Below are positions 29,394 to 44,085 of a stretch of DNA of 64,000 nt, piece by piece. The first letter of the stretch is position 1; each line of letters begins with the position of its first letter. A program made the translations under genes and the position numbers. The notes beneath the pieces were generated by a model, which searched no databases, was not told the origin of the DNA, and saw only the letters and a list, made by a program, of their open reading frames with translations. The DNA is from an uncultured Fluviicola sp. (GTDB taxonomy: Bacteria > Bacteroidota > Bacteroidia > Flavobacteriales_D > Crocinitomicaceae): assembly GCF_902168135.1 (NCBI RefSeq), contig NZ_CABHOL010000043.1, positions 19,969-83,968 of the forward strand, in the 5' to 3' direction.

Positions 29394-32279
29394 TTAATTG
29401 ATAATTTGACAGTCGTTTCCTATTTCTATATCTGCCTGGAAATCCAGATTAATGATTCCGAGTAGTTTGACTGAAAATCCGACAGCTCCGTAGACAAATG
29501 TAGGTTTTGGCAATCGACCCTGAAGCAGGGCGGCGGCGTCAATTGAAGCGACCGAATATTCTTTTTTGAGTGTACCGTCATCTTTGTAGCGACGGACACC
29601 CATACCGCCACTCAGCCAGGCATAAACCTGTCCCATGAGATACCAATTGTTGAATCCGACTTTGCTTGTGGAACCCGAGCAATGTGCTGTTGGACTCAGT
29701 TTGAACATGGTAATATCAAAACCTGCACCAACGCTGGCATAAGCATATCCTCTCCAATTCGTTTCTTTCGGGAATTCCCCTCCGAAATTTGCGGCAATCA
29801 TCATTCCGGTAGCAAACCCGTTTCCGGTGCTCACGGCACTCATATCTGTACTGATAATAGGGCTTGAACTAACAAGGTTTGTTACGTAGGACGGCGGCGG
29901 CGGCATCGGGTCGATCTGCGTTCCGATCATGAAATAGGTATTCGCCGTAAACAGGTTTAATACTTCAATGGTTGCCCTGTTCGACGGACGGTTCAACCAA
30001 AAATACCAATCATGTTTGTCAATGTGGATTTTTAAATTACAATTTCCCTGGAGAATTCCCGGAACAATGGCAAGTGCGTCTACTTGTGCATCAAACACTT
30101 TTTCAACGTTGTCGTAGTTCACAGAAATAGCACCTTCTACTTTTGTGCAATTAGCACCTCGCTCTGAACGTTTTACGAGCATAGTCGCCCGCCCGAAGAA
30201 ATTGATATTGGCCAAACCTCCGTTGGCATTGAATTGGATGGAGAAAATAGCTTCGCCGTTCAGGACCGACTCTCCCGGAATGGCCACCAATGCAACACCT
30301 GCACTGAATCCGAGTCCCAGGCTGGGATCAGGTATGAAAGGTATGGCGGAAGAAGTAGGGGCGCCCTGATTTGGATTCATAGCTCCGTTAAATGCCCGGT
30401 CTAGTTTTTGGGCCGGAGTAAGCGTGCTTTTTACTCCGTATTGAACACCTCCGAAAAGATTGGTGATTAAAGCAAACTGACCGATCGGTATAGTTAGTGG
30501 TACGGAAGCATCCACGTACCAGTATCGCTTCGAATTGAGTTTTCCAAATCCAACAGATACTCCGGCAAAATCATTCATGATCGCATTGAGCTTGAATGAA
30601 ATTGCTCCAAAGAACATGTCCCCGTAAACCGGGTCGTCATCACGAAGAGAAAGGATTCCGTTCAATGCAAACGGACTGGTATTAATAGACAGAGCGATAT
30701 CGTATACCTTGAATTTGTCGAATTGCAGTCTTTGTCTTCCGTCTGATCCGGTAACTCTTTTTGTAATGACACCTACAAAAGTAGATGCCCCAAAAGAATT
30801 GGAATTTTCTTCGCCTCCAAGTTTTAAGCTGAGGTCGACTTTTAAGATAACATTGGATTGCGTCAGGCCAAGTTCCAGGTAATTCAGAGAGATTGGAAGC
30901 CTTGCGACTTTGTTGGGTTCTCCGTCTTCGCCAATTTCGTCGCTTGTCAGTGCAAATGTACCGCCGTAAATATAAGGTGCCTGCGTCCCGATGTTTAAGG
31001 ATTGGAAGAGCAATTTGTTCAGTCTTGCTTTAGCTCCGTTATACGTCAGGTTTCCGTTAAGTGTAATGTCAGGAATGAACTTCCCTGAAACAACCTGCAC
31101 ATGGACCATACAGTTAGGTGCCAGCTTCAGGGTGGAGCTGAACATTGGAAGTTGATAGGTATAACTGTTTACTGTTTTTGCAGTGAAATCATAAATAAGC
31201 GCTGAATTATCGTTGGGTTTATAGACTCCTGCACGGTATGCAAATTCAGCATTATTTAAAGGTTCTACGCGGAGTTTTCCGGCCAGTCGACCATCTACCA
31301 GGTGGTTATATTCGATACCCAATACCAGGGAATCAATTGAGAATCCCCAGCTGTCCATATCGCCCTCTCCGACACTGAAAATACCGGTTGCAAAGAAATC
31401 TCCGGAAACACCGTTGTCATCAATCAGAAGATCTGTTACACCAATGGTCGTTTCGCCACTGCTCCTGCTTAGTTTAGGTGGAAGTTTTACGGAGAGGTTA
31501 TGCGCATAAAACCCGGTCCAGTTACCGATTTCAGGATAGAGGTTTTGGGTGGCGGCAGGTAAGATAATTCCGGTAGGATTGATAGAATCGTTGCGGTCAA
31601 CGATCAATTGGTTTACACGGAATTCAAAATCATCCAATCCTTTCACCACAAAAGGATCCATACTGGTCTGGAACATGATTTTGGAAATATCGTCTATATT
31701 GACCTGTATGTTCGCTTTTACCTGTCCTCCGCCTGGTTTATGGATTAATTCCTGGCTAAAAAGGATATCGGCGTTAATGTTAGCCCGCTCGTAACCATTG
31801 CAGCCCCATTGGATGTAATTTGTTCCGTCGCCTTTGAAAACAATGCTGTTCTTTGGTCCCAATTTGATGCGTTGGTCCCCCAAAAGCTTTAAAGTAATTG
31901 GGTTTCCATTACCACCGGGCATAACTCCTTTCGGGTTAAATGAAACACCTTTTGCTGCGAAAGCCAGCTTCCCGTAAGCACCCGGCCAGTCCATGGCCAT
32001 ATAAACATCAAAGGTTGCTCCCTGCGGAGTAAAACGCGCCGAATCAATGCAGATCACGTAAATAATATCACCGATTTTCTTGCAAATTCCGATAGGAAGT
32101 GATGCATGATCAGTAGGCGAAAAGTTCGTAGTCTGCTTGTCAGGATTGACCCGGATAATAGAATCCAGGGTAAGAGCCCTTATTCTGGATTGAGCCAAAC
32201 TAGCAGAGTCAGACTGCGCGTTCCCCTTGAAATTTAGGAAGATGGCGAAAAGAATAAAAAGTAGGTGTCGGGTTTGCAT
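29394..32279 (-). CDS. Large secreted beta-strand-rich hypothetical protein (about 961 aa; start refined to ATG at 32279)
   Basis: Signal peptide MQTRHLLFILFAIFLNFKGNAQ; Gly/aromatic-rich predicted beta strands throughout; no T9SS CTD. Confidence 0.8.
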   Translation of the reverse strand: MQTRHLLFILFAIFLNFKGNAQSDSASLAQSRIRALTLDSIIRVNPDKQTTNFSPTDHASLPIGICKKIGDIIYVICIDSARFTPQGATFDVYMAMDWPGAYGKLAFAAKGVSFNPKGVMPGGNGNPITLKLLGDQRIKLGPKNSIVFKGDGTNYIQWGCNGYERANINADILFSQELIHKPGGGQVKANIQVNIDDISKIMFQTSMDPFVVKGLDDFEFRVNQLIVDRNDSINPTGIILPAATQNLYPEIGNWTGFYAHNLSVKLPPKLSRSSGETTIGVTDLLIDDNGVSGDFFATGIFSVGEGDMDSWGFSIDSLVLGIEYNHLVDGRLAGKLRVEPLNNAEFAYRAGVYKPNDNSALIYDFTAKTVNSYTYQLPMFSSTLKLAPNCMVHVQVVSGKFIPDITLNGNLTYNGAKARLNKLLFQSLNIGTQAPYIYGGTFALTSDEIGEDGEPNKVARLPISLNYLELGLTQSNVILKVDLSLKLGGEENSNSFGASTFVGVITKRVTGSDGRQRLQFDKFKVYDIALSINTSPFALNGILSLRDDDPVYGDMFFGAISFKLNAIMNDFAGVSVGFGKLNSKRYWYVDASVPLTIPIGQFALITNLFGGVQYGVKSTLTPAQKLDRAFNGAMNPNQGAPTSSAIPFIPDPSLGLGFSAGVALVAIPGESVLNGEAIFSIQFNANGGLANINFFGRATMLVKRSERGANCTKVEGAISVNYDNVEKVFDAQVDALAIVPGILQGNCNLKIHIDKHDWYFWLNRPSNRATIEVLNLFTANTYFMIGTQIDPMPPPPSYVTNLVSSSPIISTDMSAVSTGNGFATGMMIAANFGGEFPKETNWRGYAYASVGAGFDITMFKLSPTAHCSGSTSKVGFNNWYLMGQVYAWLSGGMGVRRYKDDGTLKKEYSVASIDAAALLQGRLPKPTFVYGAVGFSVKLLGIINLDFQADIEIGNDCQIIN

Positions 32280-32295
32280 AGTACGAAAGTAATAT

Positions 32296-32303
32296 TTAGA
32301 TTT
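32296..32303 (+). promoter_or_regulatory. -7 element TAGATTTG upstream of the 32346-43712 operon
   Basis: TAnnTTTG match in the 66-bp divergent intergenic region. Confidence 0.45.
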
Positions 32304-32345
32304 GAAATCGCAAACCACTTTGCATAACAGAAACTTAAACGCTAC

Positions 32346-35300: not shown

Positions 35301-36083
35301 GGAAGCGGTGGTTTTATTCAGGTCGATTCGATCTACGGTGGAGCAGCCGCAGATCTTTCGGATTATTTGTTTGCCTTTAACGGAGGTGCTTACTCCACGA
35401 ATTACAATTTCCCGGTGAACCAGATTGCCACCTATCCGCTTTTGATTAAGGATACACTGGGTTGTGAATATGCATTTACGACAGAAATTACAGGAGTCAT
35501 CCAGAATCCTGGGGTGGACTTCCTGGTGTCAACTTACAACCAGGTAGGAGATACGATTGTTCTGGTCAATATCTCCGGTTTCTCCGATTTCGACGGTGTG
35601 TTCTGGACCTTGCCTTCCGGTGTGGAAATGATTAGTTCCTACGATTCCATTGCAATTTTTACAGCTGCGGATAGTGGTTGGTACCAAATCCAGTTTACGG
35701 GCTTCCTGATCGATACAGCTGCAAACCCGGCTGACACTTGCTTTTATTCTTTCGATAAGTATGTTTACTTCGGTAATTTCGCTATGAATTTCGGAGATTC
35801 GGCAGTTGATAACAGTATCAGCAATGTACAGCTTTATCCGAACCCGATTTCGGCAAACCAAAGTCAAGGTGTTACACTGAGCTTTAATATCGCAGGTCTG
35901 CAGCACTATGAAGTGATTTTTACCAGCAGTTTGGGAGAAGTTCTGAATTCCATTTCGGATGAAGGGACCGCGGAAGGCGATATTGTAAAAACATATAATC
36001 TGCCTCCATTAGCTTCTGGAACTTACCTGATTCATATTTTGGCCGAGTACGGTGCTGCACAAATTAAACTGATTGTGCAATGA
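32346..36083 (+). CDS. T9SS type A sorting domain protein: N-terminal beta-propeller-like repeats plus Cys-containing Ig-like repeats
   Basis: Signal peptide; repeats IVVGKF/IYIGGLFTVVNG/IVAVGGF; Ig-like repeats (LTC..DTVNL, NGC...DT); CTD LYPNP...SSLGEVL...LASGTYLIHI...IKLIVQ. Confidence 0.85.
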   Translation: MKSKSFLFLVLLFHCFSHAQTLKNVVVNLDASGQVFDIKYITSMQKYIVVGKFSSIQGHAVNNMALLDLNFNYVNATFPTVNDEIRCVEVFNANIYIGGLFTVVNGTSQECLARMTITAPAVATDPYVVAHLPAFQLLNNFASAYYVADMDLNGNEIVAVGGFYDSSRNCIVAFSASSGALVSTKFTGGSGIDEYYDQYTNYPIFTVDKLNNNYVVAGPAMRNYTYDNITYPDGTEMMLFNNSGTQLTGNTLPSYHTVSYPSSTYPTHQANEISVLNDSIVLTNLRHGSGAILLGALNIVNPDSYEVLHPVALTGYALGNAGIVSYNNNFYYIRNNTIERGSVTGTIGSGSSLALSFLPSNNISLGGSSASPSLLGKMLQLTNNFLIVSSDNLSTIAGQSRTGLAIMCLEPEDAKKMNNLYNMASLPPNPPPFELDTVVCAGNIKAYTVPPAKYANGYRWTYNGPGVKYCLANTLSEVPTTASSWTSLNGSVIVPMSVTAHKMWLMFDESFTGGELKVEPYSTCNTTTDYLFSKAATTTLVLAPLPDLTVADSLMLTCLNDTVNLVASSITPGVSFSWLNENGTTINNSSIQLTLSGVQSVSFPRYFTATVSQTSGNMCKVRDSVFVDRSVIKPEMILNGSLPIWNCYSDSLQIEVIDTNSLAPELPVVISWNESSNDFSNANPLTIYSDTASIIFIATYPSNGCVDTTQLTLSTDLTPPIQQINGFSSGFQQVGTITCTNDSLLVILSDYNSINTDNYWIYQGDTLPDSVWVTASDLSYQEADTLGANLVTVTIDEYRINPLNGCSTYGPLAAVVFDIRQPAVIAYSGPTSLTCSADELILEHFPTFGISNQGWLLANGTSNGADTLVVNGSGEFYYQVEGTNGCLVTDTIQIQQTNELLFASAMDTLVCPGTPFTVSAVAIGPGTMTYSWSDGTQAITPNGIGGEDSVFIVQAENGQGCVGVDTLMAHITSPISATFEAFSSCGSGGFIQVDSIYGGAAADLSDYLFAFNGGAYSTNYNFPVNQIATYPLLIKDTLGCEYAFTTEITGVIQNPGVDFLVSTYNQVGDTIVLVNISGFSDFDGVFWTLPSGVEMISSYDSIAIFTAADSGWYQIQFTGFLIDTAANPADTCFYSFDKYVYFGNFAMNFGDSAVDNSISNVQLYPNPISANQSQGVTLSFNIAGLQHYEVIFTSSLGEVLNSISDEGTAEGDIVKTYNLPPLASGTYLIHILAEYGAAQIKLIVQ

Positions 36084-37813
36084 TGAAAGTGGTTTTTTGT
36101 TTTTGCTTCCTGCTGCCTATCCTTGCGTTTTCCCAAAACCTGGATAAGATCGGTAAAAAAGGAATGATGAAAGTTTCCGGTGGATTGAACTTTTCTTCGA
36201 ATTTGAATCAGGCCTACGGAAAGACTCTGGCCAGAGATCCGTTCTCCTGGGTGGTTGGTGGAAATGTAACTTTTTCGGTGCTTGATTTTTCCATGCCTTT
36301 TACATTTTCGTACACCAACCAGGGCGGAAATTTTACGCAGCCCTTCAATATAACGGCACTGCATCCGACTTACAAGAAGATCAAAGGACATGTGGGAGTC
36401 ATTTCCATGTCGTTTTCACCTTACACGCTTGCCGGATTGAACTTTGCAGGTGCAGGACTGGAATACACACCGGGTAAATGGAAGATCCAGGGTTTTGGAG
36501 GAAGACTGAAAAAGCAGGTAGCCTTTATCCCGGAGATCAACAACATTGAAACGATGGCCTACAGAAGATGGGGCGGTGGAATTTCTGTCGGATATGAAGA
36601 CAAAGGTTATGGAGCTACTTTTATTTTGTTGAAAGCCTCTGATCAGCGTACTTCATTGGCAGTCGTTCCAAACAGCGCAACCATTACTCCGATGGACAAT
36701 ATCGTGGCGTCTCTGGCTTTGAAAGGAAAAATCGGGAAATCGATCCTGATGACTGCGGAATATGCATCCAGTATTCTTACACGAAATACTGAGCTTACGG
36801 AAAAGATTGAACGCAAGACGTATGCAAAAACCATGTCGCCGCTTGTAAACGGAAACCAGTCTACGATTGCTTTCGGGGCTTTCAACGGGTCGATCAATTA
36901 TCAGTACAAGGTGTTCTCCATCGGGGCGAAATACGAACGGATTGATCCGGGATACACCACACTTGGCGGTATGTACTTCAACAACGATTTGGAGAATATT
37001 ACGCTTACACCGGCAATTGCACTTTTCAGGGGGAAACTGAACATCAATATCAATACCGGAGTTCAACGCAACAACCTGAATAACCTGAGTGCTAATGAAA
37101 TGAAACGCTGGGTAGGAACAATTGCCCTTTCAAGTATGCCTTTCAAAAACTTTACGGTTTCCGGAAATTACTCGAATTTCTCTTCTTTCTCGAAACGGAA
37201 TCCGGCTTCAGATCCTTTCTACAACCCGGTCGGAGACACCCTGAATTTCTACCAGATTTCTACGAATGCGAGCGCAAGCATGTCTTACAATTTTGGGAAG
37301 AAGCGTAAAAGCACTTTGATGTTGAACGGGAATTATTCCGTAAGCGAAAACATTACCGGACGCCTGGAAGATGCTGCCGCTTTCGGCTTCAATGTTTCGG
37401 GAACGAACCAAACCGGTCCTGTAACGGTATTAACCGGGATGTTCGGTCACACACTTTCTTTTGAGAAATCGAAATCTTCATTGGGCTGGACAATCAACGG
37501 AAGCCAGTCGAGGGCCATGAGCAATGAAAACCTGTATTTCGGTCCGGGAGTGAATTACTCGAAACCAATTTTGAAGTGGATCAACCTCACCACAGGACTT
37601 ACCTACAATCAGAATTACACGAATTCAAAGCTTGCCAACCACGTCATGAATACGCGGGTCGGACTTTCGTTTAAGCCTACCTGGTGGGACAAAAAATTCG
37701 GTTCGTTGAACTTTTCACTGAACGGAAGTTTGGTGAACCGGTTTGCAGTTGCCAAAACCTCCAAAAACCAGGGAGATATTGCCCTTATTTTCAATCTTAA
37801 CTACGGATTCTAA
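36080..37813 (+). CDS. Outer-membrane beta-barrel protein, 577 aa
   Basis: Signal peptide; alternating amphipathic strands; C-terminal beta-signal FNLNYGF; ATGA overlap with the upstream gene. Confidence 0.8.
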   Translation: MMKVVFCFCFLLPILAFSQNLDKIGKKGMMKVSGGLNFSSNLNQAYGKTLARDPFSWVVGGNVTFSVLDFSMPFTFSYTNQGGNFTQPFNITALHPTYKKIKGHVGVISMSFSPYTLAGLNFAGAGLEYTPGKWKIQGFGGRLKKQVAFIPEINNIETMAYRRWGGGISVGYEDKGYGATFILLKASDQRTSLAVVPNSATITPMDNIVASLALKGKIGKSILMTAEYASSILTRNTELTEKIERKTYAKTMSPLVNGNQSTIAFGAFNGSINYQYKVFSIGAKYERIDPGYTTLGGMYFNNDLENITLTPAIALFRGKLNININTGVQRNNLNNLSANEMKRWVGTIALSSMPFKNFTVSGNYSNFSSFSKRNPASDPFYNPVGDTLNFYQISTNASASMSYNFGKKRKSTLMLNGNYSVSENITGRLEDAAAFGFNVSGTNQTGPVTVLTGMFGHTLSFEKSKSSLGWTINGSQSRAMSNENLYFGPGVNYSKPILKWINLTTGLTYNQNYTNSKLANHVMNTRVGLSFKPTWWDKKFGSLNFSLNGSLVNRFAVAKTSKNQGDIALIFNLNYGF

Positions 37814-40800
37814 TGCGTAATTACTTTTTCCGAATAAAATTTCGTTTACTCTTTTTGCTCCTGCTTTTTGCCGGATCAGGAATCCATGCACAGGTTTATC
37901 CGGTTCAGGTAACCGTTGTACCGACACCGCCTCACCGCAACTATTTGAATTCATTTTCGGAGCAGGGGGCATTGAATGTGTTCCTGACACTGACTGATTT
38001 CAATTCGGGACCCATTTCTGTGAAACTGAAAATGGAACTGAATGGTCCGGGATACCAATTCCGCTCCCTTCCGAATAACCTGATTTATGTCCTGAATCCG
38101 GGACAACCGGTGCAGGTTCCCATGGAAGACCTGGCGGTGTTCTTCAGTTCTACCGGGCAGACCCTGAATTTCAATCCGGGGAAACTACCGGAAGGAAATA
38201 CCTCTATCTGCATTGATGTGATTAAAAACCAAAGCGGTGAAGTGCTTTCCCAAAATGGCTGCGGTTACTTTTACATGGGATACGGTCAGCCGGCATCTTT
38301 GCTGCAGCCGGCTTGTAATGCTACTGTTCAGATCCCTGCGGGATACCCGGCTTCCACCGATCTACGGACCCTTCCTTTGCAGTTCAATTTTATTCCGGCA
38401 CTTGCACCGATCGGTTTGCAGCAGGAAGTAGAAAACACCTTGTATATCTACAATTGGCTGGGCACAGTGAATACCAATCCTCCTCTTACACCGAATGGCC
38501 TGGCTTTGGCTATGGATCCGGTGGAATTGGGTCCAATTACGGCTCACACGCTTTTACCGATCAATAATCAGCTCATTGTGGGGCAGGAATATGTTTGGTA
38601 TGTGAAGACCAGCCTGAACGGTTCCACGAATCAGTTCCAGAATGGCGGCTGGTCAGCTCCGTGCAAATTTAAGTATGGTGCAGCGCAGTCTATTGAGGAA
38701 GCCCTGGCTAACGGACTTTCCGTGGAGTGGGTAGACCTGGTTTCCAATTCCGAATCCAAAGGAACGGGAACCTGGAAAGTGGTGAAGGAAGATCCGAACT
38801 CATCGGCTACGTTCAACCAGTTTATTCTAAAATACCGCAGAAAAGTTCCTGCCGGTCAGCAGCCCTTCGAATGGTTCTCCGATACGGTCAACGATTTGAG
38901 TAAGGCCATTTACCAGCTGGAGCCTGCAACGACTTACGAAGCGAGCGTGGCAGGACGTTTGGGGAGTTTTGTTTCCGAGCCAACCGAAATACGCACTTTC
39001 ACTACAGCTCCGCCAAGAACTTATAGTTGTGGAGTAGCCAATTTCCCGGGAAGAGCAACCGCATTCCAGCCTTTGGAATACGCAGATCCTGGAATGAAAG
39101 TCAAGATCGGGATGTTCCAGCTGGAGTTTGTTTCCGTTCAGAATACCGGTCAGCCCGGGCATTTCAGTGGTACGGGACTCATCCCGGTAGATTTCCTCTT
39201 CGGAGCGGAAGCACGGGTGAAGTTTGACAACCTGAAGATCGACAAGGAATACGATGTATGGGAAGGAACGGCGCATGTGATCACAGATGGACTGGATGCC
39301 TGGCTGGAAGATCAGTACCAGCAGTTCCAGGACCCGATCTTTGTGAACGGAACGGTTGATTCGGCTTATGTGTCCGATTCTATTGCACATGTGGTAATTG
39401 ATGGAATAGATACCACATTTACTTTCCCTTGTGCCACTTGTCCGGTTATCATTAATGACGTAGCAGGAAACCAGGTTACGATCTATCCGAACGGAACGGT
39501 GATCTGGAGCAGTTACCTCGATGTGTCGGATGAACAGCTGGATGTTCCGGATACGGAGATTGGTGTGTTTGAGCAGCATGCACAGGAAACCGGTGGATTT
39601 GATCCTTTCGAGCACATCGAATGGAACGCGAATTACGAGATTATCCGGACCTCGAATGCTGTCAATTATTTTGTGGCCAATAAATCGTTGATAAAAGGAC
39701 AACCCGACAAAGTTTCCCTGAGTGTTCCGGAAAACAAGTACACGGCTACCAATGTGCAGCTTTCCTGGGCCGGACTTGCAACACCTTTGGCGCCGGCTTC
39801 AAGCACAGTTTCAAGCGGCAAAAGAGTATTCGTATTCGATTTACCGGCATTCAATGATGATGACGAATTTGCCATTTACGCGATCTCCGATAATCTGAAG
39901 ATCGGTAAGTTGAATGTGGTGGTTTATGAATTAATTCAAAAAAATATAGTTGTTATTCCTATTGGTGGAACTATTGATGGTAGTCAATTAAGAACCTATT
40001 TGAATACTACTCTGGGAGAGTCTGGTATTGATTTCACTATAACTATTAGTGATACTACAGGGGTTGGTAAATATTCATCACTCAGTAGTCTGAATATTCC
40101 AGATGCAACTTTAATGAGTAAGTATTCTGGTAAGATGCGCCAGATCAGGAACAGCTATTTTGATACACATGAAGAAGAAGATAATTCTTTCTATTTTTTC
40201 ATAGTTTCTTCTTTGATGGATACGGTTCATAATCTTCCCGTAGATGGTTATATGGTTCGAGGTAAAAATATCGGATTCATCCAGTCAGGAAGCACCTTCC
40301 GAACATATGCCCATGAGTTGGGACATGGGGCAGGTTTTTTGGAACATAGCTGGAAAAATAATGGGCCTGAAAGAGGTAGTTCTAATAATTTAATGGATTA
40401 TGTCAGTGATGATAATTTATTATTCAGCCAATGGGAGGAGTTAAGAAATCCAAACGGCACTGGTTTATGGGATGAAGAGGAAGATAATGAATCTGACGTA
40501 AGCGGCAATTATCTCAAGCGACTTTTGCCTTTGAAGAATGCTAATAATACGTTTACATTTTTTGATCCCTCTGGTGGAATTATATCAATCCCTGTGGATG
40601 GATTAACTAATATTTGTATTTCAGATAATAACTCTTATAAAAGTTTTTCCGAAAACACCAGATTAAATGTTCCTGCTGGGACTTTAGTTGAGTTTAGCTA
40701 TAATGGTAAGCGATATTTTAGTTTTGGTACTGAAACTGATTTTGCCGGATATGCATACAAAGAGGGGGATACCAGGGTTTACTATGAAGACCCCTATTCT

Positions 40801-43263
40801 AAGGAAATTCCCGAAAGTGATCGACAGGTAATACTAGGTTTTCCATATTATCCTGATGCTCAGGAAATTGTAAATCGAATTCCTGAAGTTAATGGAGTTG
40901 TAACCTATTCCTTAGATAACATTCAGTTTTCGGATCTTCCAACCTATGCTTTCCGATTGGTTAAGCCAACAAGTTCTTTTTCATGGCCCTCCGAAACAAT
41001 AACTTATCTTAATAAACCCTCAAAGAACTTTGATAAGTTCGCGAGTTTCATGGAGAAATTCGACTATTATGATGGTCCATTGGTTGATATTAAGAATTTT
41101 AATATCAGTTGGAATGATTATGCAAAAGGTTTTTTGGTATTAAATAGTACGGAATTTTTTGGGTATAACTACAATCAAGCTATTCAATGTGCGAATTATA
41201 TTAATTCTAATCCTGGAGTATATATTAGTATTCAGGCTTGTAATTCAGTGGATTTTCCTATAAGAAATCATAAACAATTAAATACTTACCTGTATGAAGA
41301 TGAATTATCACCTATTCCAACGGATGGTAATTTTTCCTACTGGAGGCCAATTAATCAGTATTCGGAAGCACAAAAAGAACATTATATAGATCAGTTTAAG
41401 GGGACTTTAAGGGCTAGGACTGATAATGCAACATCGTTTAATAGCGAGATTGAAAATTGGCCTATCAATAATCCGGATGGATTAAATACAAAATTGGCCG
41501 GTCTATGTGAAGGTCATTATTCTGAATTGTCAGTTAAAGCACGAAAGCAAATTATAAAAACCCTTGCACAATCAAATGATATTGATGAGTGTGATATGGG
41601 AATCTTTAGTTCTTCAACTACCTGTTCTGAAGGACAAATTTTGGCCGTTTTAAGAAATGCGCCTGCCACACAGTATAAAGAAATAGTAACTTTTTTAAAG
41701 GAAAACGATAATTTATATTTCAGGAGACTCTACAAGGGGATTGATAATCATACATGGGGTGCTTATAATTTTGAGGAGTTCACAAAACTGCTTACCGCTA
41801 TTGTTACTAATGCCTTTGACGATTACGAAGGTCTGTTGGATAATAATGCTGTGATCTATTATGAGAGCATTGCAATGGATAATTACATTTCAATGTATGA
41901 GCAAAAGCAAAGATATTTGGGTAGTTCGTTAGTTGAGTCTGATCCGGCAGGTAAGGTTTGGATTAACATGCATTTTCAATATGGCAATGGTTATATTCCT
42001 CCAAGTGAGCTTAAACACCAATACAATCCTTTGGATGTTATATTGATATATGGTGCCAGTGAGTATAATTATTCTTCCCAATATTTCAAATTAGCCGCTG
42101 GAGAAATGAAATTAGTACCAGCCTTTTATTTGGCGGCAGTGAATAAATCCGGGCAAGATAGAAAATTTGAATACGAATTAAATGTAGTAACAACTGTTGC
42201 TGGTGGAATAATTATGCTGCCTTTAGCTGAGGCTCAGGTTGCTGCGGGTGGTATTGCAGAATTGTGTGCTGTAACTGAGGTTATTGCATATTCTGTTCAG
42301 GCACCAATTATTGTAACGGATGTTTTAAATACATTGGATCCAAATTCGGAATCCTATTATATCATTTCGAAATTGAATGATTTTTGCACGGCTGCCATGC
42401 TATTTTCTGGCGGTGCAATGATGATCTCAAATCTTGATAATGCCGCAAACTTTGTCAAAAATATAGATCTTGACAAATTGAAAAATATCCCTAGCCAGGT
42501 TTCAATTCAGTTTCAGGACAAGATCAGGAAATTGCGTGATTTTGCATTAGCTCTTTTAAAGAAGTTTCAGAGAACGGAAACATTATTAGAAATGCTTAAT
42601 GGACCATCGCTTAAATCTTTGAAGAATAATGTGAACGGCCTTAGCGAAGCTCTTTATACTCAATTTTTGGATGATTTTTCAAAAAGTCACTTAGAGGATT
42701 TGAAAAAACTTCAGAATGAAGGTTTATTTGAAATTTGGAAAACCGGTGTTCGAAGTAGTAATATAGAGGAGTTAAGAGAAGTAGCAAAAATACCAAATCT
42801 GAGATCAGAATATGCCCAAAAAGTAAAAGCATTGGCTCAGAAGAAAATCGAATTAGAAAGTCAGGGTAAGACCCCACTTGAAATTGCACAGACACTTTTT
42901 GGAAATAGAAGAGACTTAACCATACATTACAAAAAGATAACTCCGGATGATTTAATGGAATGGATCTATAAGCGGAATCATTTTGAGTATGTTGTAAAAG
43001 GAACCGGTGACAAATGGGGACTTACCTGGCAAGGCGCATTAAAAAAATATTCTAAAGATATTGTGGAAGATCTTTCTCAAGCGACTCCTAGCCAAATGAA
43101 TGAAATTTATAGTAAAATTGCAGGAAGCGCATCGGAAATATTTGAAGGAGCGGAAGACAAAATAGCTCTGGGGCAAAGATTTTTGACTTATTTTGATGGA
43201 AAGGTTACTCCAACAGAATTTTTATCTTTAGAGCGAGTATTATTGAAATATAGAATGATGTGA
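37813..43263 (+). CDS. 1816-aa TANFOR/FN3-type secreted protein with internal HExxH metallopeptidase and C-terminal polymorphic-toxin-like domain
   Basis: Signal peptide; QVYPVQV TANFOR-like N-terminus; FN3 (YQLEPATTYEASV); AHELGH...NLMDY; hydrophobic hairpin; RRDL..YK..TP..L...IY.RN..Y...GD..G tip; GC drop at about 39.9 kb; TAATG overlap with the barrel gene. Confidence 0.8.
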   Translation: MRNYFFRIKFRLLFLLLLFAGSGIHAQVYPVQVTVVPTPPHRNYLNSFSEQGALNVFLTLTDFNSGPISVKLKMELNGPGYQFRSLPNNLIYVLNPGQPVQVPMEDLAVFFSSTGQTLNFNPGKLPEGNTSICIDVIKNQSGEVLSQNGCGYFYMGYGQPASLLQPACNATVQIPAGYPASTDLRTLPLQFNFIPALAPIGLQQEVENTLYIYNWLGTVNTNPPLTPNGLALAMDPVELGPITAHTLLPINNQLIVGQEYVWYVKTSLNGSTNQFQNGGWSAPCKFKYGAAQSIEEALANGLSVEWVDLVSNSESKGTGTWKVVKEDPNSSATFNQFILKYRRKVPAGQQPFEWFSDTVNDLSKAIYQLEPATTYEASVAGRLGSFVSEPTEIRTFTTAPPRTYSCGVANFPGRATAFQPLEYADPGMKVKIGMFQLEFVSVQNTGQPGHFSGTGLIPVDFLFGAEARVKFDNLKIDKEYDVWEGTAHVITDGLDAWLEDQYQQFQDPIFVNGTVDSAYVSDSIAHVVIDGIDTTFTFPCATCPVIINDVAGNQVTIYPNGTVIWSSYLDVSDEQLDVPDTEIGVFEQHAQETGGFDPFEHIEWNANYEIIRTSNAVNYFVANKSLIKGQPDKVSLSVPENKYTATNVQLSWAGLATPLAPASSTVSSGKRVFVFDLPAFNDDDEFAIYAISDNLKIGKLNVVVYELIQKNIVVIPIGGTIDGSQLRTYLNTTLGESGIDFTITISDTTGVGKYSSLSSLNIPDATLMSKYSGKMRQIRNSYFDTHEEEDNSFYFFIVSSLMDTVHNLPVDGYMVRGKNIGFIQSGSTFRTYAHELGHGAGFLEHSWKNNGPERGSSNNLMDYVSDDNLLFSQWEELRNPNGTGLWDEEEDNESDVSGNYLKRLLPLKNANNTFTFFDPSGGIISIPVDGLTNICISDNNSYKSFSENTRLNVPAGTLVEFSYNGKRYFSFGTETDFAGYAYKEGDTRVYYEDPYSKEIPESDRQVILGFPYYPDAQEIVNRIPEVNGVVTYSLDNIQFSDLPTYAFRLVKPTSSFSWPSETITYLNKPSKNFDKFASFMEKFDYYDGPLVDIKNFNISWNDYAKGFLVLNSTEFFGYNYNQAIQCANYINSNPGVYISIQACNSVDFPIRNHKQLNTYLYEDELSPIPTDGNFSYWRPINQYSEAQKEHYIDQFKGTLRARTDNATSFNSEIENWPINNPDGLNTKLAGLCEGHYSELSVKARKQIIKTLAQSNDIDECDMGIFSSSTTCSEGQILAVLRNAPATQYKEIVTFLKENDNLYFRRLYKGIDNHTWGAYNFEEFTKLLTAIVTNAFDDYEGLLDNNAVIYYESIAMDNYISMYEQKQRYLGSSLVESDPAGKVWINMHFQYGNGYIPPSELKHQYNPLDVILIYGASEYNYSSQYFKLAAGEMKLVPAFYLAAVNKSGQDRKFEYELNVVTTVAGGIIMLPLAEAQVAAGGIAELCAVTEVIAYSVQAPIIVTDVLNTLDPNSESYYIISKLNDFCTAAMLFSGGAMMISNLDNAANFVKNIDLDKLKNIPSQVSIQFQDKIRKLRDFALALLKKFQRTETLLEMLNGPSLKSLKNNVNGLSEALYTQFLDDFSKSHLEDLKKLQNEGLFEIWKTGVRSSNIEELREVAKIPNLRSEYAQKVKALAQKKIELESQGKTPLEIAQTLFGNRRDLTIHYKKITPDDLMEWIYKRNHFEYVVKGTGDKWGLTWQGALKKYSKDIVEDLSQATPSQMNEIYSKIAGSASEIFEGAEDKIALGQRFLTYFDGKVTPTEFLSLERVLLKYRMM

Positions 43264-43712
43264 TTTTATTGAACTTTGGAAATTATAAAATAGCAAGAAA
43301 AATTCTGATTGAAAATGAGATAATTCAGTTTTTTGAGGAAGAACCATATTCAGCTTCAGCTACTGAGAAAGATGGTCTTTATGAGGTGCTTAATAAGCAG
43401 TTGATAGCAATCTTTTCGGATAAGAAGAAAAATTACTTGTATTTGAATGGTCAGTTATTTCTATTAACTCCGGAAATATCAATTGAATATTTTATTGCTC
43501 AGGATATGCATACCAGGAGCTGGTTTAAATTATTTAAGTCGGAGGATTTAATTTTCAATATAAATTATTTAAATCCACATAAGCCTTTTGTTTTGTCCGA
43601 TCCTTTTTTTTCGGATGAAGATTATGAGACAACTAACTTTGCTTCTCATCTTGCCCAGTGGATATCGAAAATAAAAAAAGAGAATAATGTTGTCTTGTTT
43701 CACAAGCCATAA
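43260..43712 (+). CDS. Putative cognate immunity protein, 150 aa
   Basis: GTG start overlaps the toxin stop (GTGA); small, low GC, aromatic/acidic, no signal peptide. Confidence 0.6.
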   Translation: MILLNFGNYKIARKILIENEIIQFFEEEPYSASATEKDGLYEVLNKQLIAIFSDKKKNYLYLNGQLFLLTPEISIEYFIAQDMHTRSWFKLFKSEDLIFNINYLNPHKPFVLSDPFFSDEDYETTNFASHLAQWISKIKKENNVVLFHKP

Positions 43713-43861
43713 TCCTTTATAAAGAATAATTAAGGATTGGTTAAACCTCAATTTGCATCTGATTTTTACAAGTATTTGTTCCAACGGATTAAAGCTGTTA
43801 AACTCAGATTTTACAATACCACCATCAAGAATTTTGCTTATGATATGATTGTTCTGAATGA

Positions 43862-44035
43862 ATTACAGGTAATGCATCGGTTGAAGTATACGATTTGAAC
43901 GAGAAATTGCTCTTGACTGAGAAAAATATCAGCCCGGAAGGCCCGCTTTCACTAGAGGCACTTAGCGGAAAAGTTTTCCTGATCAAAATCCTTGAGAACG
44001 GAAGAAGCATGTAGCAAAGAGTGGTGAAGCTTTAA
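43862..44035 (+). pseudogene. Remnant T9SS type A CTD of a destroyed cargo gene
   Basis: Reads ITGNASVEVYDLNEKLLLTEKNISPEGPLSLEALSGKVFLIKILENGRSM*QRVVKL*. No start codon; premature TAG at 44012; aligns with the CTD of 44193-47042 (ATVQVFDLNGKIL...LSGLDGNMFVVRII...QKRVVKY). Confidence 0.75.
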
Positions 44036-44052
44036 AAGTTATGGAACTTACG

Positions 44053-44085
44053 GTGCTGTTCCATTTCCCGGAACAGCACTTTTTG
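44053..44085 (+). terminator. Rho-independent terminator
   Basis: Perfect 10-bp stem GTGCTGTTCC / GGAACAGCAC followed by TTTTT. Confidence 0.8.

Follow-up and report, generated by a model that had tools for sequence, protein, structure and literature searches.

The window analyzed here, a 64,000-nt stretch of DNA from an uncultured Fluviicola sp., raises the question of whether the last residues of one very long protein are a toxin and, if so, of what kind. The protein (P0001) is encoded by an intact, stop-free open reading frame (37813..43263, + strand; the end coordinate counts the stop codon) that translates into 1816 aa and reads as a complete polymorphic toxin gene. Its layout comprises a Sec signal, a TANFOR-like/Fn3-like scaffold, a zincin motif, a variable middle, hydrophobic pre-toxin helices and a C-terminal toxin domain. 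The first-pass annotation had described the pattern Y..V..L...G....EIA...RR.L...YK..TP..L...IY.RN..Y.GD..G at this C-terminus as a recurrent tip of Rhs, LXG and CdiA proteins in unrelated phyla, and could name no activity for it.

The tip is shared by a large family of proteins. An exhaustive HMMER search of 1.84 billion representative proteins with aa 1600–1816 as the query returned 205 matches at E ≤ 1e-3, 30 of them at E ≤ 1e-10 and 15 at E ≤ 1e-30. Such an exhaustive search was required, as word-indexed protein searches with the tail recovered no more than the query or a single fragment. Searches with tblastn gave three matches in plasmids, all unannotated or hypothetical, and none in phage records. 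The family spans more than 200 clusters at 50% identity, at least six phyla and at least seven kinds of carrier. Among the 149 best matches, 135 have the domain ending within 10 aa of the C-terminus, as expected of the recurrent terminal tip described at first pass, and 95 have at least 100 aa preceding it. P0001 itself ends 1 aa past the HMM envelope. The motif match to the family lies far beyond chance expectation.

The domain rides on many unrelated delivery systems. Rhs proteins are the commonest, with Rhs_assc_core in 22 of 124 homologues scanned against Pfam and RHS_repeat/DUF6531 in long homologues. The CdiA or two-partner type is represented by a protein with ESPR, TPS and DUF637 (P0105) and by PT-VENN (one homologue). 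Thus, the C-terminal matches to Rhs and CdiA proteins anticipated at first pass were found, but LXG is absent from the Pfam families detected and the type VII carriers have WXG100 (two) or T7SS_signal (one) instead. The scans also detected Tox-PAAR-like (four), PT-HINT (two), Phage_Mu_F (two) and DUF4280 domains. Carriers beyond those first listed include PAAR-like, VgrG-linked, MuF, eCIS_core and SpvB/TcdB/RHS proteins, with architectures such as SpvB+TcdB_mid+RHS (TcB/TcC-like), DUF6531+RHS and PAAR. For example, locus L016 has the type VI gene order ClpV-Hcp-VgrG-toxin-immunity. The domain is also found as a stand-alone protein of ~100–135 aa in toxin/immunity islands beside PoNi, Imm48, AHH/Imm11 and Tox-ART-HYD1; in L008, a 133-aa protein consisting of the domain only is paired with an immunity gene. 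P0001 has only the tip in common with such proteins, as Pfam and NCBIfam scans found no RHS/YD repeats, TPS, PAAR or LXG modules in it.

The quoted motif spans aa 1662–1736 of P0001, from NLRSEYAQKV to GDKWG (starting at aa 1732). The first-pass annotation located the domain correctly and set its start at 42795, one base before the codon boundary (42796 in frame), which puts a direct translation of 42795–43263 out of frame. The first-pass pattern agrees with the consensus of 73 members, LRxxYxxxVxxL...GKSxEEIAxxL...RRxLGxKYKxxTPxxLxExIYxRNxxRYGDKLGP. Alignment with distant relatives delimits a core common to all (aa 1654–1757; 42772..43083, +), and the domain as modeled extends over aa 1650–1816 (42760..43260, +). 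Close relatives align across aa 1602–1815, a region that includes an N-terminal extension of the module (aa 1602–1649; 42616..42759, +) that aligns in the ‘KYRM’ subfamily alone (HMM positions 2–50) and has the pattern ...QFLDDF...LKKLQ...WK..VRS..IEEL. The tail of the domain (...LGQRF...LLKYRMM) is also subfamily-specific.

Fourteen positions are invariant or at least 90% conserved (R1664, Y1667, A1692, R1699, R1700, K1707, T1710, P1711, I1718, N1722, Y1726, D1733, G1736 and I1769) and all are intact in P0001. A divergent gut-metagenome homologue without an immunity gene no longer has the invariant N and T. The conserved set includes just one acidic residue and lacks His, Cys, Ser and Glu. 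A single conserved acidic residue without His is unusual for metal-dependent nucleases. Our best guess is that the invariant basic residues R1664, R1699, R1700 and K1707 would hold a phosphate-rich substrate and that N1722, Y1726 and D1733 are candidate catalytic or ligand-binding residues.

Structure prediction with AlphaFold gave an unusable model from the single sequence (pLDDT 42) and a confident AF2 model of aa 1650–1816 from the 73-sequence alignment (pLDDT 96.1, pTM 0.87). The model is compact and all-alpha, with eight helices and a short hairpin. Foldseek searches of the model against PDB and BFVD returned nothing at E < 1. Searches of PDB with the toxin domain, as a single sequence and as a profile, yielded nothing but spurious matches to designed helical repeats. 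Furthermore, neither the whole protein nor the tail alone revealed a model for the toxin domain in Pfam, NCBIfam or PADLOC. The early statement that no activity could be named is in line with all of these results.

The strongest competing explanation equates the domain with ‘Tox-HTH’, a family that Table 2 of Zhang et al. 2012 (PMC3482391) lists with no accompanying description. It would be a helix-turn-helix (HTH)-like DNA binder, with binding and not catalysis as its means of poisoning replication or transcription. If so, the family has already been catalogued computationally. The residue order of Tox-HTH (RxxY, R, [ST]) is matched by R1664xxY1667, R1699/R1700 and T1710 (at least 90% conserved), a pattern match only, and the GKSxEEIARxL...RR stretch looks HTH-like by eye. 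The carriers listed for Tox-HTH (T5SS, T6SS, T7SS, PVC/eCIS and MuF) also match the unusual mix found here (TPS, PAAR/VgrG, WXG100, MuF and eCIS_core, which is the PVC peptidase). However, the model folds EIAQTLFGNRRDLTIHYKK as one continuous 21-residue helix rather than a helix-turn-helix. No HTH Pfam family matched any of the 124 members, and Foldseek against PDB chains brought up no HTH protein (best E 3, TM ≤ 0.25), a search that short three-helix matches can escape. The published table gives FilH repeats only; in the present family, Rhs proteins are the most frequent carriers. Compared by description only, the Tox-HTH entry also lists no Rhs proteins and assigns no immunity protein, whereas the family studied here has both Rhs carriers and cognate immunity proteins. 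We rate this identity as a serious but minority possibility.

The same structural results bear on whether the domain could be a non-enzymatic inhibitor that blocks, one-to-one, an essential and conserved cytoplasmic protein such as a translation factor, polymerase or division protein. A core of ~100 aa that is all-helical, lacks a recognizable catalytic constellation (His, Cys, Ser and Glu are not among the conserved residues) and has no enzyme fold neighbor is consistent with such a role. Yet nine polar residues are at least 90% conserved across phyla, which is more than a binding surface usually needs. Furthermore, delivered toxins arrive in few copies and most of those characterized are enzymes (PMC3482391). 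These considerations make an inhibitor unlikely.

The gene that follows P0001, P0002 (43260..43712, +; 150 aa), has a GTG start and overlaps the stop codon of the toxin gene by 4 nt (GTGA), as in a cognate immunity gene. Related loci were sought with a subfamily alignment. A 135–160-aa open reading frame of the P0002 family lies directly 3′ of the toxin in all 11 of the other loci examined (L001–L005, L008, L012, L014, L016, L017 and L019). Among 62 metagenome loci, 50 have a member of this family in the same position, eight have a different gene of ~90 aa and a few have none. In L018, L062 and L068–70, toxin and immunity even share a single reading frame. Compared by hhalign, two small immunity alignments showed only weak similarity (E 0.034), and the link was settled after sampling the 62 additional loci: all immunity groups join in one 55-member BLAST component and a profile built without the window’s subgroup matches P0002 at E 7e-9. 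Pfam, NCBIfam and PADLOC scans of P0002 gave nothing relevant. We consider it probable that the C-terminal ~170–215 residues of P0001 are the toxic payload and that P0002, from its overlapping gene, is the cognate immunity protein.

The properties of the immunity proteins suggest where the toxin acts. All 12 immunity candidates analyzed are acidic (pI 4.2–5.8) and the toxin domains have a basic median pI of 9.2. A hydropathy scan found no hydrophobic segment in P0002, and the immunity proteins inspected, including that of the type VI locus L016, have no signal peptide, lipobox or membrane helix. Acidic, signal-less immunity proteins and a basic, hydrophilic toxin are consistent with action in the cytoplasm. 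They would also fit a nucleic-acid target. Nonetheless, many toxin classes share the combination of a basic toxin and an acidic immunity protein, which is no proof of such a target. The fusion of some members to PG_binding_1, PG_binding_3 or SH3_3, and the signal peptide of some small ones, could instead point to a domain that works outside the cytoplasm on peptidoglycan, lipid II or the membrane. We regard such an envelope target as very unlikely, because the inspected immunity proteins lack export and membrane signals and the domain, hydrophilic and basic, is unlike any hydrolase fold.

BLASTP comparisons show that aa 8–1000 and aa 1602–1815 of P0001 are homologous to Bacteroidota proteins of 1300–2200 aa and that the middle is not conserved. 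The N-terminus has a Sec-type signal peptide (aa 1–26; 37813..37890, +) with a putative cleavage site at ...GSGIHA|QVYPV. Indeed, aa 5–31 are the sole N-terminal hydrophobic stretch of the protein and all 10 scaffold homologues keep the AQ-x-(Y/F)P junction. The conserved carrier scaffold that follows (aa ~8–1000; 37834..40812, +) has a divergent TANFOR-type N-terminus and Fn3-like and metallopeptidase-like regions. It is 23–27% identical to P0004, P0005, P0006, P0013, P0023, P0024, P0026 and the L001 and L002 proteins. Eight of 10 aligned homologous N-termini match the TANFOR model TIGR02542 (best E 9e-11), and P0001 aligns with these homologues over aa 8–1000 (BLAST E 1e-17 to 5e-45). The N-terminus of P0001 did not reach this model at any listed E-value, either in the NCBIfam scan or in a TIGR02542 search of the window’s genome, so we consider it a divergent TANFOR relative.

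The scaffold profile (A6) matches 67 of 401 genomes of the class and the tip profile (A2) only two of the same 401. By these profile matches, the same carrier appears to bear differing C-terminal tips, as in the polymorphism criterion of Zhang et al. 2012. A low-GC block (39800..43800) takes in the last two thirds of the toxin gene together with the immunity gene, with a GC content of about 0.30–0.39 versus 0.47–0.51 just upstream within the same open reading frame. This composition fits the gain of the distal part and the immunity gene by recombination. Near the locus, a flanking gene of 949 aa has the Por_Secre_tail domain of type IX secretion (T9SS) sorting (E 8e-8) and a gene of 1245 aa matches it weakly (E 6e-4).

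Two internal features of P0001 could assist delivery. A zincin-like motif, HELGHGAGFLEH (aa 834–845; 40312..40347, +), marks a candidate processing peptidase. The region around it (aa 711–1000) is conserved in homologues, and its match to Reprolysin_4 is sub-threshold (E 0.0011, 19 bits versus a cut-off of 22). Closer to the toxin, a Kyte-Doolittle scan identified Gly/Ala-rich hydrophobic helices (aa 1456–1502 and 1523–1540; 42178..42432, +) as a possible translocation segment. Comparable helices precede the domain in many short homologues, and BLASTP aligns the pre-toxin and toxin region of P0001 with P0008 (aa 1421–1816, 30% identity). P0004 carries a further XopAD-C-terminus-like module immediately ahead of the toxin domain. 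A reading of the domain as a non-toxin terminal adaptor or folding module, with toxicity elsewhere (e.g., in the metallopeptidase region), could draw on the zincin-like motif, the P0004 module and the lack of a known activity, but is highly improbable given the domain-only protein paired with immunity in L008, the placement of the domain as cargo behind Rhs cores, PT-HINT, PT-VENN and PAAR, and a dedicated neutralizing-type partner gene linked across phyla.

The interpretation we favor, and consider likely, is a genuine toxin/immunity pair of an uncharacterized family, deployed here as the payload of a TANFOR-type Bacteroidota polymorphic toxin and acting in the cytoplasm. Direct support comes from family membership, terminal position, carrier diversity, immunity linkage, signal-less immunity proteins and a confident fold without known neighbor. 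We found no toxicity or neutralization experiment in the literature for any family member, and we infer the toxicity, compartment of action, target and delivery route of the P0001 tip. The protein would be exported via Sec and then delivered to a competing bacterium. The internal zincin-like peptidase may free the toxin domain, and the hydrophobic pre-toxin helices could assist its entry. The small, basic, all-helical domain would then reach the competitor’s cytoplasm and act on a conserved target. A phosphate-rich substrate, either nucleic acid or nucleotide, is a credible candidate for that target, at somewhat less than even confidence. The acidic cytoplasmic immunity protein would bind the toxin one-to-one and, in doing so, protect the producer. 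More tentatively, the domain could be an undescribed enzymatic fold with a new catalytic arrangement (R/Y...RR...K-TP...N...Y...D, without His) that acts in the cytoplasm, has its own immunity superfamily and travels as cargo of nearly every known interbacterial route. In that case, the divergent TANFOR carrier may lie within a conserved gene set (including 577-aa outer-membrane-type and 974-aa beta-rich proteins) that could, equally tentatively, be a TANFOR export or delivery apparatus.

Polymorphic toxins are a main source of new enzyme activities such as base-editor deaminases, NADases and nucleases. The present family is unnamed in Pfam and NCBIfam and has no solved or similar structure. 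Its immunity partners likewise lack a family name, and current annotation pipelines overlook both genes as a result. With conserved residues, domain limits and a cognate immunity gene defined, the activity can be directly tested by expression. Furthermore, the locus is a tractable case for how TANFOR-type toxins exit the cell.

Among known systems, PT1 and PT7 of the PT1–PT9 toxins (bioRxiv 10.1101/2021.10.19.465003) were compared by structure: PT1-PIM and PT7-PIM are reported there as solved, and the domain has no sequence or fold match in PDB. The Rehh toxin (bioRxiv 10.64898/2026.09.22.753552) resembles the family in being widespread, lacking similarity to known enzymes, using several secretion systems and having acidic immunity. 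However, an identity with Rehh was rejected because its metal pocket is histidine-rich and HNH-like, whereas no histidine is conserved in the family studied here. Rhs, CdiA and type VI cassettes also carry terminal cargo after an Rhs core, PT-VENN or PAAR, with a small, translationally coupled immunity gene downstream, and the family is organized alike. Their orphan cassettes in poly-immunity islands are also a habit of the family. The tip of P0001 is none of the domains named for TANFOR toxins (PoNe, BaCT, AHH, WHH, EndoU, TNT, VIP2 and others) and would fall in their ‘Unknown’ class (PMC7073777; Jana, Salomon & Bosis 2020). Yet TANFOR toxins are large proteins that combine a Sec signal, a TANFOR region at the N-terminus and Fn3-like modules, a layout of which P0001 appears to be a divergent form, and the locus shares their interchangeable C-terminal toxins, an immunity gene directly 3′ and T9SS substrates nearby (PMC7073777).

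P0001, the 1816-aa product of an uninterrupted ORF (37813..43263, + strand), and P0002, the 150-aa product of the adjoining ORF (43260..43712, + strand), are a bona fide predicted toxin/immunity cassette, in which the polymorphic toxin has a TANFOR-type carrier. There is a four-base overlap (ATGATGTGA) between the GTG start of the P0002 gene and the toxin stop, and both genes are single-copy in the window's genome. Pfam and NCBIfam models identified T9SS sorting domains in genes flanking both sides of the pair, and the closest relatives come from Aquimarina and Crocinitomix, which places the source organism in Bacteroidota, class Flavobacteriia. The first-pass annotation had placed a domain resembling a recurrent polymorphic-toxin tip at 42795-43263. 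The strings it quoted are present in P0001 (NLRSEYAQKV from aa 1662, nt 42796; GDKWG at aa 1732); its start coordinate is one base too early, and the interval translated literally is out of frame.

The G+C content of the window is 41.6%. Inside the toxin ORF (window 39600-43900) it falls sharply at ~39800, from ~0.49 to ~0.35, stays low across the immunity gene and rises again after ~43800. The drop is compatible with a recombination that would have replaced the distal two thirds of the P0001 gene together with the immunity gene. Further downstream, at window 43862-44085, lies a frame (...LENGRSM*QRVVKL*) with a GC-rich hairpin and a T-run behind it. The arrangement resembles a decayed T9SS C-terminal sorting domain and its terminator.

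The P0001 tail had no match to Pfam, NCBIfam or PADLOC models, and scanning it by itself with a threshold of E<=10 gave none either. An exhaustive HMMER search of 1.84 billion representative proteins with aa 1600-1816 returned 205 matches at E<=1e-3, 15 of them at E<=1e-30. Profile re-search of the best 149 of these 205 showed that the domain ends at most 10 residues from the protein C-terminus in 135 and is preceded by at least 100 residues in 95 and at least 1000 residues in 17. The core common to all members corresponds to aa ~1654-1757 of P0001. Its family consensus (LRxxYxxEVxxL...LRxxGKSxEEIARxLHxxRRxLGxKYKxLTPxxLxxxIYxRNxxxYGDKLGP) is the pattern given in the first pass, and P0001 retains every family position conserved in at least 90%. 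The family has three tail subtypes (...RPGGxDLGF; ...RPNPDxDxLLxGFxxWL; ...PLGDKxxLG...KYRM). P0001, which ends in LLKYRMM, belongs to the third, which has an additional ~50-aa N-terminal extension (aa 1602-1649 in P0001). Named sources of the tip include Bacteroidota, Bacillota, Cyanobacteriota, Actinomycetota, Pseudomonadota and Desulfobacterota. They label the homologues 'hypothetical', with the lone exception of one evidently unrelated JGI label, and no named homologue has a precomputed Pfam domain.

Scanning 124 tip-bearing matches with Pfam and NCBIfam models revealed as carrier domains Rhs_assc_core (22 proteins) and RHS_repeat, Tox-PAAR-like (four proteins) and DUF4280, PT-HINT and PT-VENN, WXG100 and T7SS_signal, and Phage_Mu_F, DUF6861 and PG_binding_1. 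Long matches, examined in addition, included eCIS_core, DUF6531+RHS and PAAR carriers, a two-partner CdiA-like filament (ESPR+TPS+DUF637+DUF6862) and a TcB/TcC-like cocoon (SpvB+FG-GAP+TcdB_mid+RHS). The gene order in one metagenome locus is ClpV-Hcp-VgrG, a 292-aa protein ending in the domain, and a 145-aa ORF. The Rhs- and CdiA-type carriers anticipated in the first-pass annotation are thus represented; LXG, also anticipated, was not among the families detected in tip carriers. The 205 matches, their terminal position and the many unrelated carriers support the reading of a recurrent C-terminal toxin tip.

P0001 starts with a Sec-type signal and has a conserved scaffold (N-terminal ~1000 aa) with 23-27% identity to large Bacteroidota proteins bearing the same tip. 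A zincin-like motif (HELGHGAGFLEH, aa 834-845) coincides with a sub-threshold Reprolysin_4 match. The middle region is not conserved and precedes Gly/Ala-rich hydrophobic helices (aa 1456-1540), and the toxin module forms the last, C-terminal part. TIGR02542, the TANFOR model, matches eight of ten aligned N-termini (best E 9e-11) and does not match that of P0001 itself. Jana, Salomon and Bosis (PMC7073777) described TANFOR proteins as a class of Bacteroidetes polymorphic toxins that bear Sec signals, Fn3 modules and variable C-terminal toxins, with immunity genes downstream and T9SS substrates encoded nearby; P0001 matches this description as a divergent member. Among 401 genomes sampled across the taxonomic class, 67 (39 of 200 genera) contain matches to the scaffold profile, located in open frames of ~750-3200 aa, and two contain matches to the tip. 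The scaffold is common in the class, with this tip as one of numerous alternatives.

Gly/Ala-rich hydrophobic helices are frequent directly upstream of the tip, in the same protein or the preceding gene (for example, window 42178-42432, homologues P0008, P0040 and P0069, and locus L008 3405-3971), and may form a translocation module. In the 2114-aa homologue P0004, the ~190-aa region directly before the tip (aa 1686-1875) matches the C-terminal end of XopAD/skwp (NF041399, E 3e-29), a second module common to Bacteroidota toxins and plant-pathogen type III effectors. We also identified relatives of two genes upstream of P0001. A 974-aa protein (window 29394-32318, - strand) aligns at 25-26% over ~900 aa (E ~1e-70) with ~1570-aa Aquimarina genes located directly after the immunity gene (L001 7214-11944, L002 7146-11843, L003 7281-11993). 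A 577-aa protein ending in FNLNYGF (window 36080-37813, + strand) has 43% identity to a Crocinitomix ORF (L005 2-1645) ~4 kb upstream of a small toxin. The two genes may belong to a conserved set with an accessory or delivery role for these toxins.

All five fetched loci of the close subfamily (three Aquimarina, one Desulfobacterales MAG, one Crocinitomix) have a 149-162-aa ORF directly 3' of the toxin gene, with 28-40% identity to P0002. In two of the five, the toxin is on a ~300-aa rather than a ~2000-aa protein; the pair therefore moves as a cassette. Loci of other subtypes (Clostridium, a cyanobacterium, Lachnospiraceae, a type VI locus, Kitasatospora and one further contig) have a 136-146-aa ORF at the equivalent position. 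Similarity between immunity groups was weak in small-sample comparisons. In a broader sample of 62 metagenome loci with the second tail subtype, 53 had a downstream ORF of 80 aa or more whose start lies -30 to +120 nt from the toxin stop, and BLAST single linkage (E<=1e-4) joined 43 of these ORFs and all earlier groups, including P0002, into one 55-protein component. Furthermore, a profile from 49 members outside the window's subgroup matches P0002 (E 7e-9, Z set to one million), and in 50 of the 62 loci the whole-family profile detects a member directly downstream of the toxin domain; a few of the 62 have no downstream partner ORF. Each of the 12 immunity candidates analysed has an acidic pI (4.2-5.8). 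The toxin domains have a median pI of 9.2, and most are basic (pI >8 in 108 of 142). P0002 contains no hydrophobic segment. No Pfam model matches the immunity family, and neither it nor the payload family is represented in Pfam or NCBIfam.

At L018 (4001-4885), L062, L068, L069 and L070, a complete or truncated toxin shares one ORF with the immunity domain; they represent natural fusions, or else decayed toxins that persist as orphan immunity genes. An unrelated family of 84-99-aa ORFs substitutes for the usual immunity gene in seven loci (L064-L066, L073, L075, L079, L081), and the 89-aa downstream ORF of L072 falls outside this cluster. A divergent 135-aa tip homologue on gut metagenome contigs (L009-L011, 3519-4408; protein P0194, in 74 index blocks) has no immunity gene, overlaps an upstream 161-aa ORF and adjoins pnp/rpsO. 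It is common in gut metagenomes, has replaced the invariant Asn and Thr (YIYAAT, KQAAPP) and may have been domesticated or inactivated. The loss of both residues from an immunity-less homologue hints that they matter for toxicity.

Folding the tail without an alignment gave no usable model (pLDDT 42). With a 73-sequence alignment, aa 1650-1816 were predicted to form a compact domain (pLDDT 96.1, pTM 0.87) with eight helices and, where VVKGTGDKWG is inserted, a short hairpin; Foldseek searches of PDB and BFVD gave no fold neighbour of this model. The tip is a terminal cargo domain common to many delivery systems, and its partner is acidic, family-specific, tightly linked and without a signal peptide. 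The tip would poison competing bacteria from within their cytoplasm, and P0002 would bind it one-to-one, protecting the producer. The zincin-like region and hydrophobic helices could have roles in release and membrane passage. Our tentative guess for the target is a phosphate-rich substrate (nucleic acid or nucleotide), given which polar residues are conserved (R, Y, RR, K, T, N, Y, D) and the complementary charges of toxin and immunity protein. The conserved residues include no His and only one that is acidic, which makes a classical metal-dependent nuclease unlikely.

By its table description, Tox-HTH (Table 2, Zhang et al., 2012, PMC3482391) may be the same family: its motif order and carrier spectrum fit the tip well, and it may thus be an earlier computational sighting. 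The predicted payload structure does not resemble an HTH. PT1 and PT7 (Nachmias et al.) were rejected because the tip has no PDB match, assuming that their reported complex structures are in the PDB copy searched, and Rehh was rejected as a His-rich toxin. Orphan toxin tips are many; the one described here stands out by its unusually wide distribution and clear boundaries, and is amenable to direct tests.
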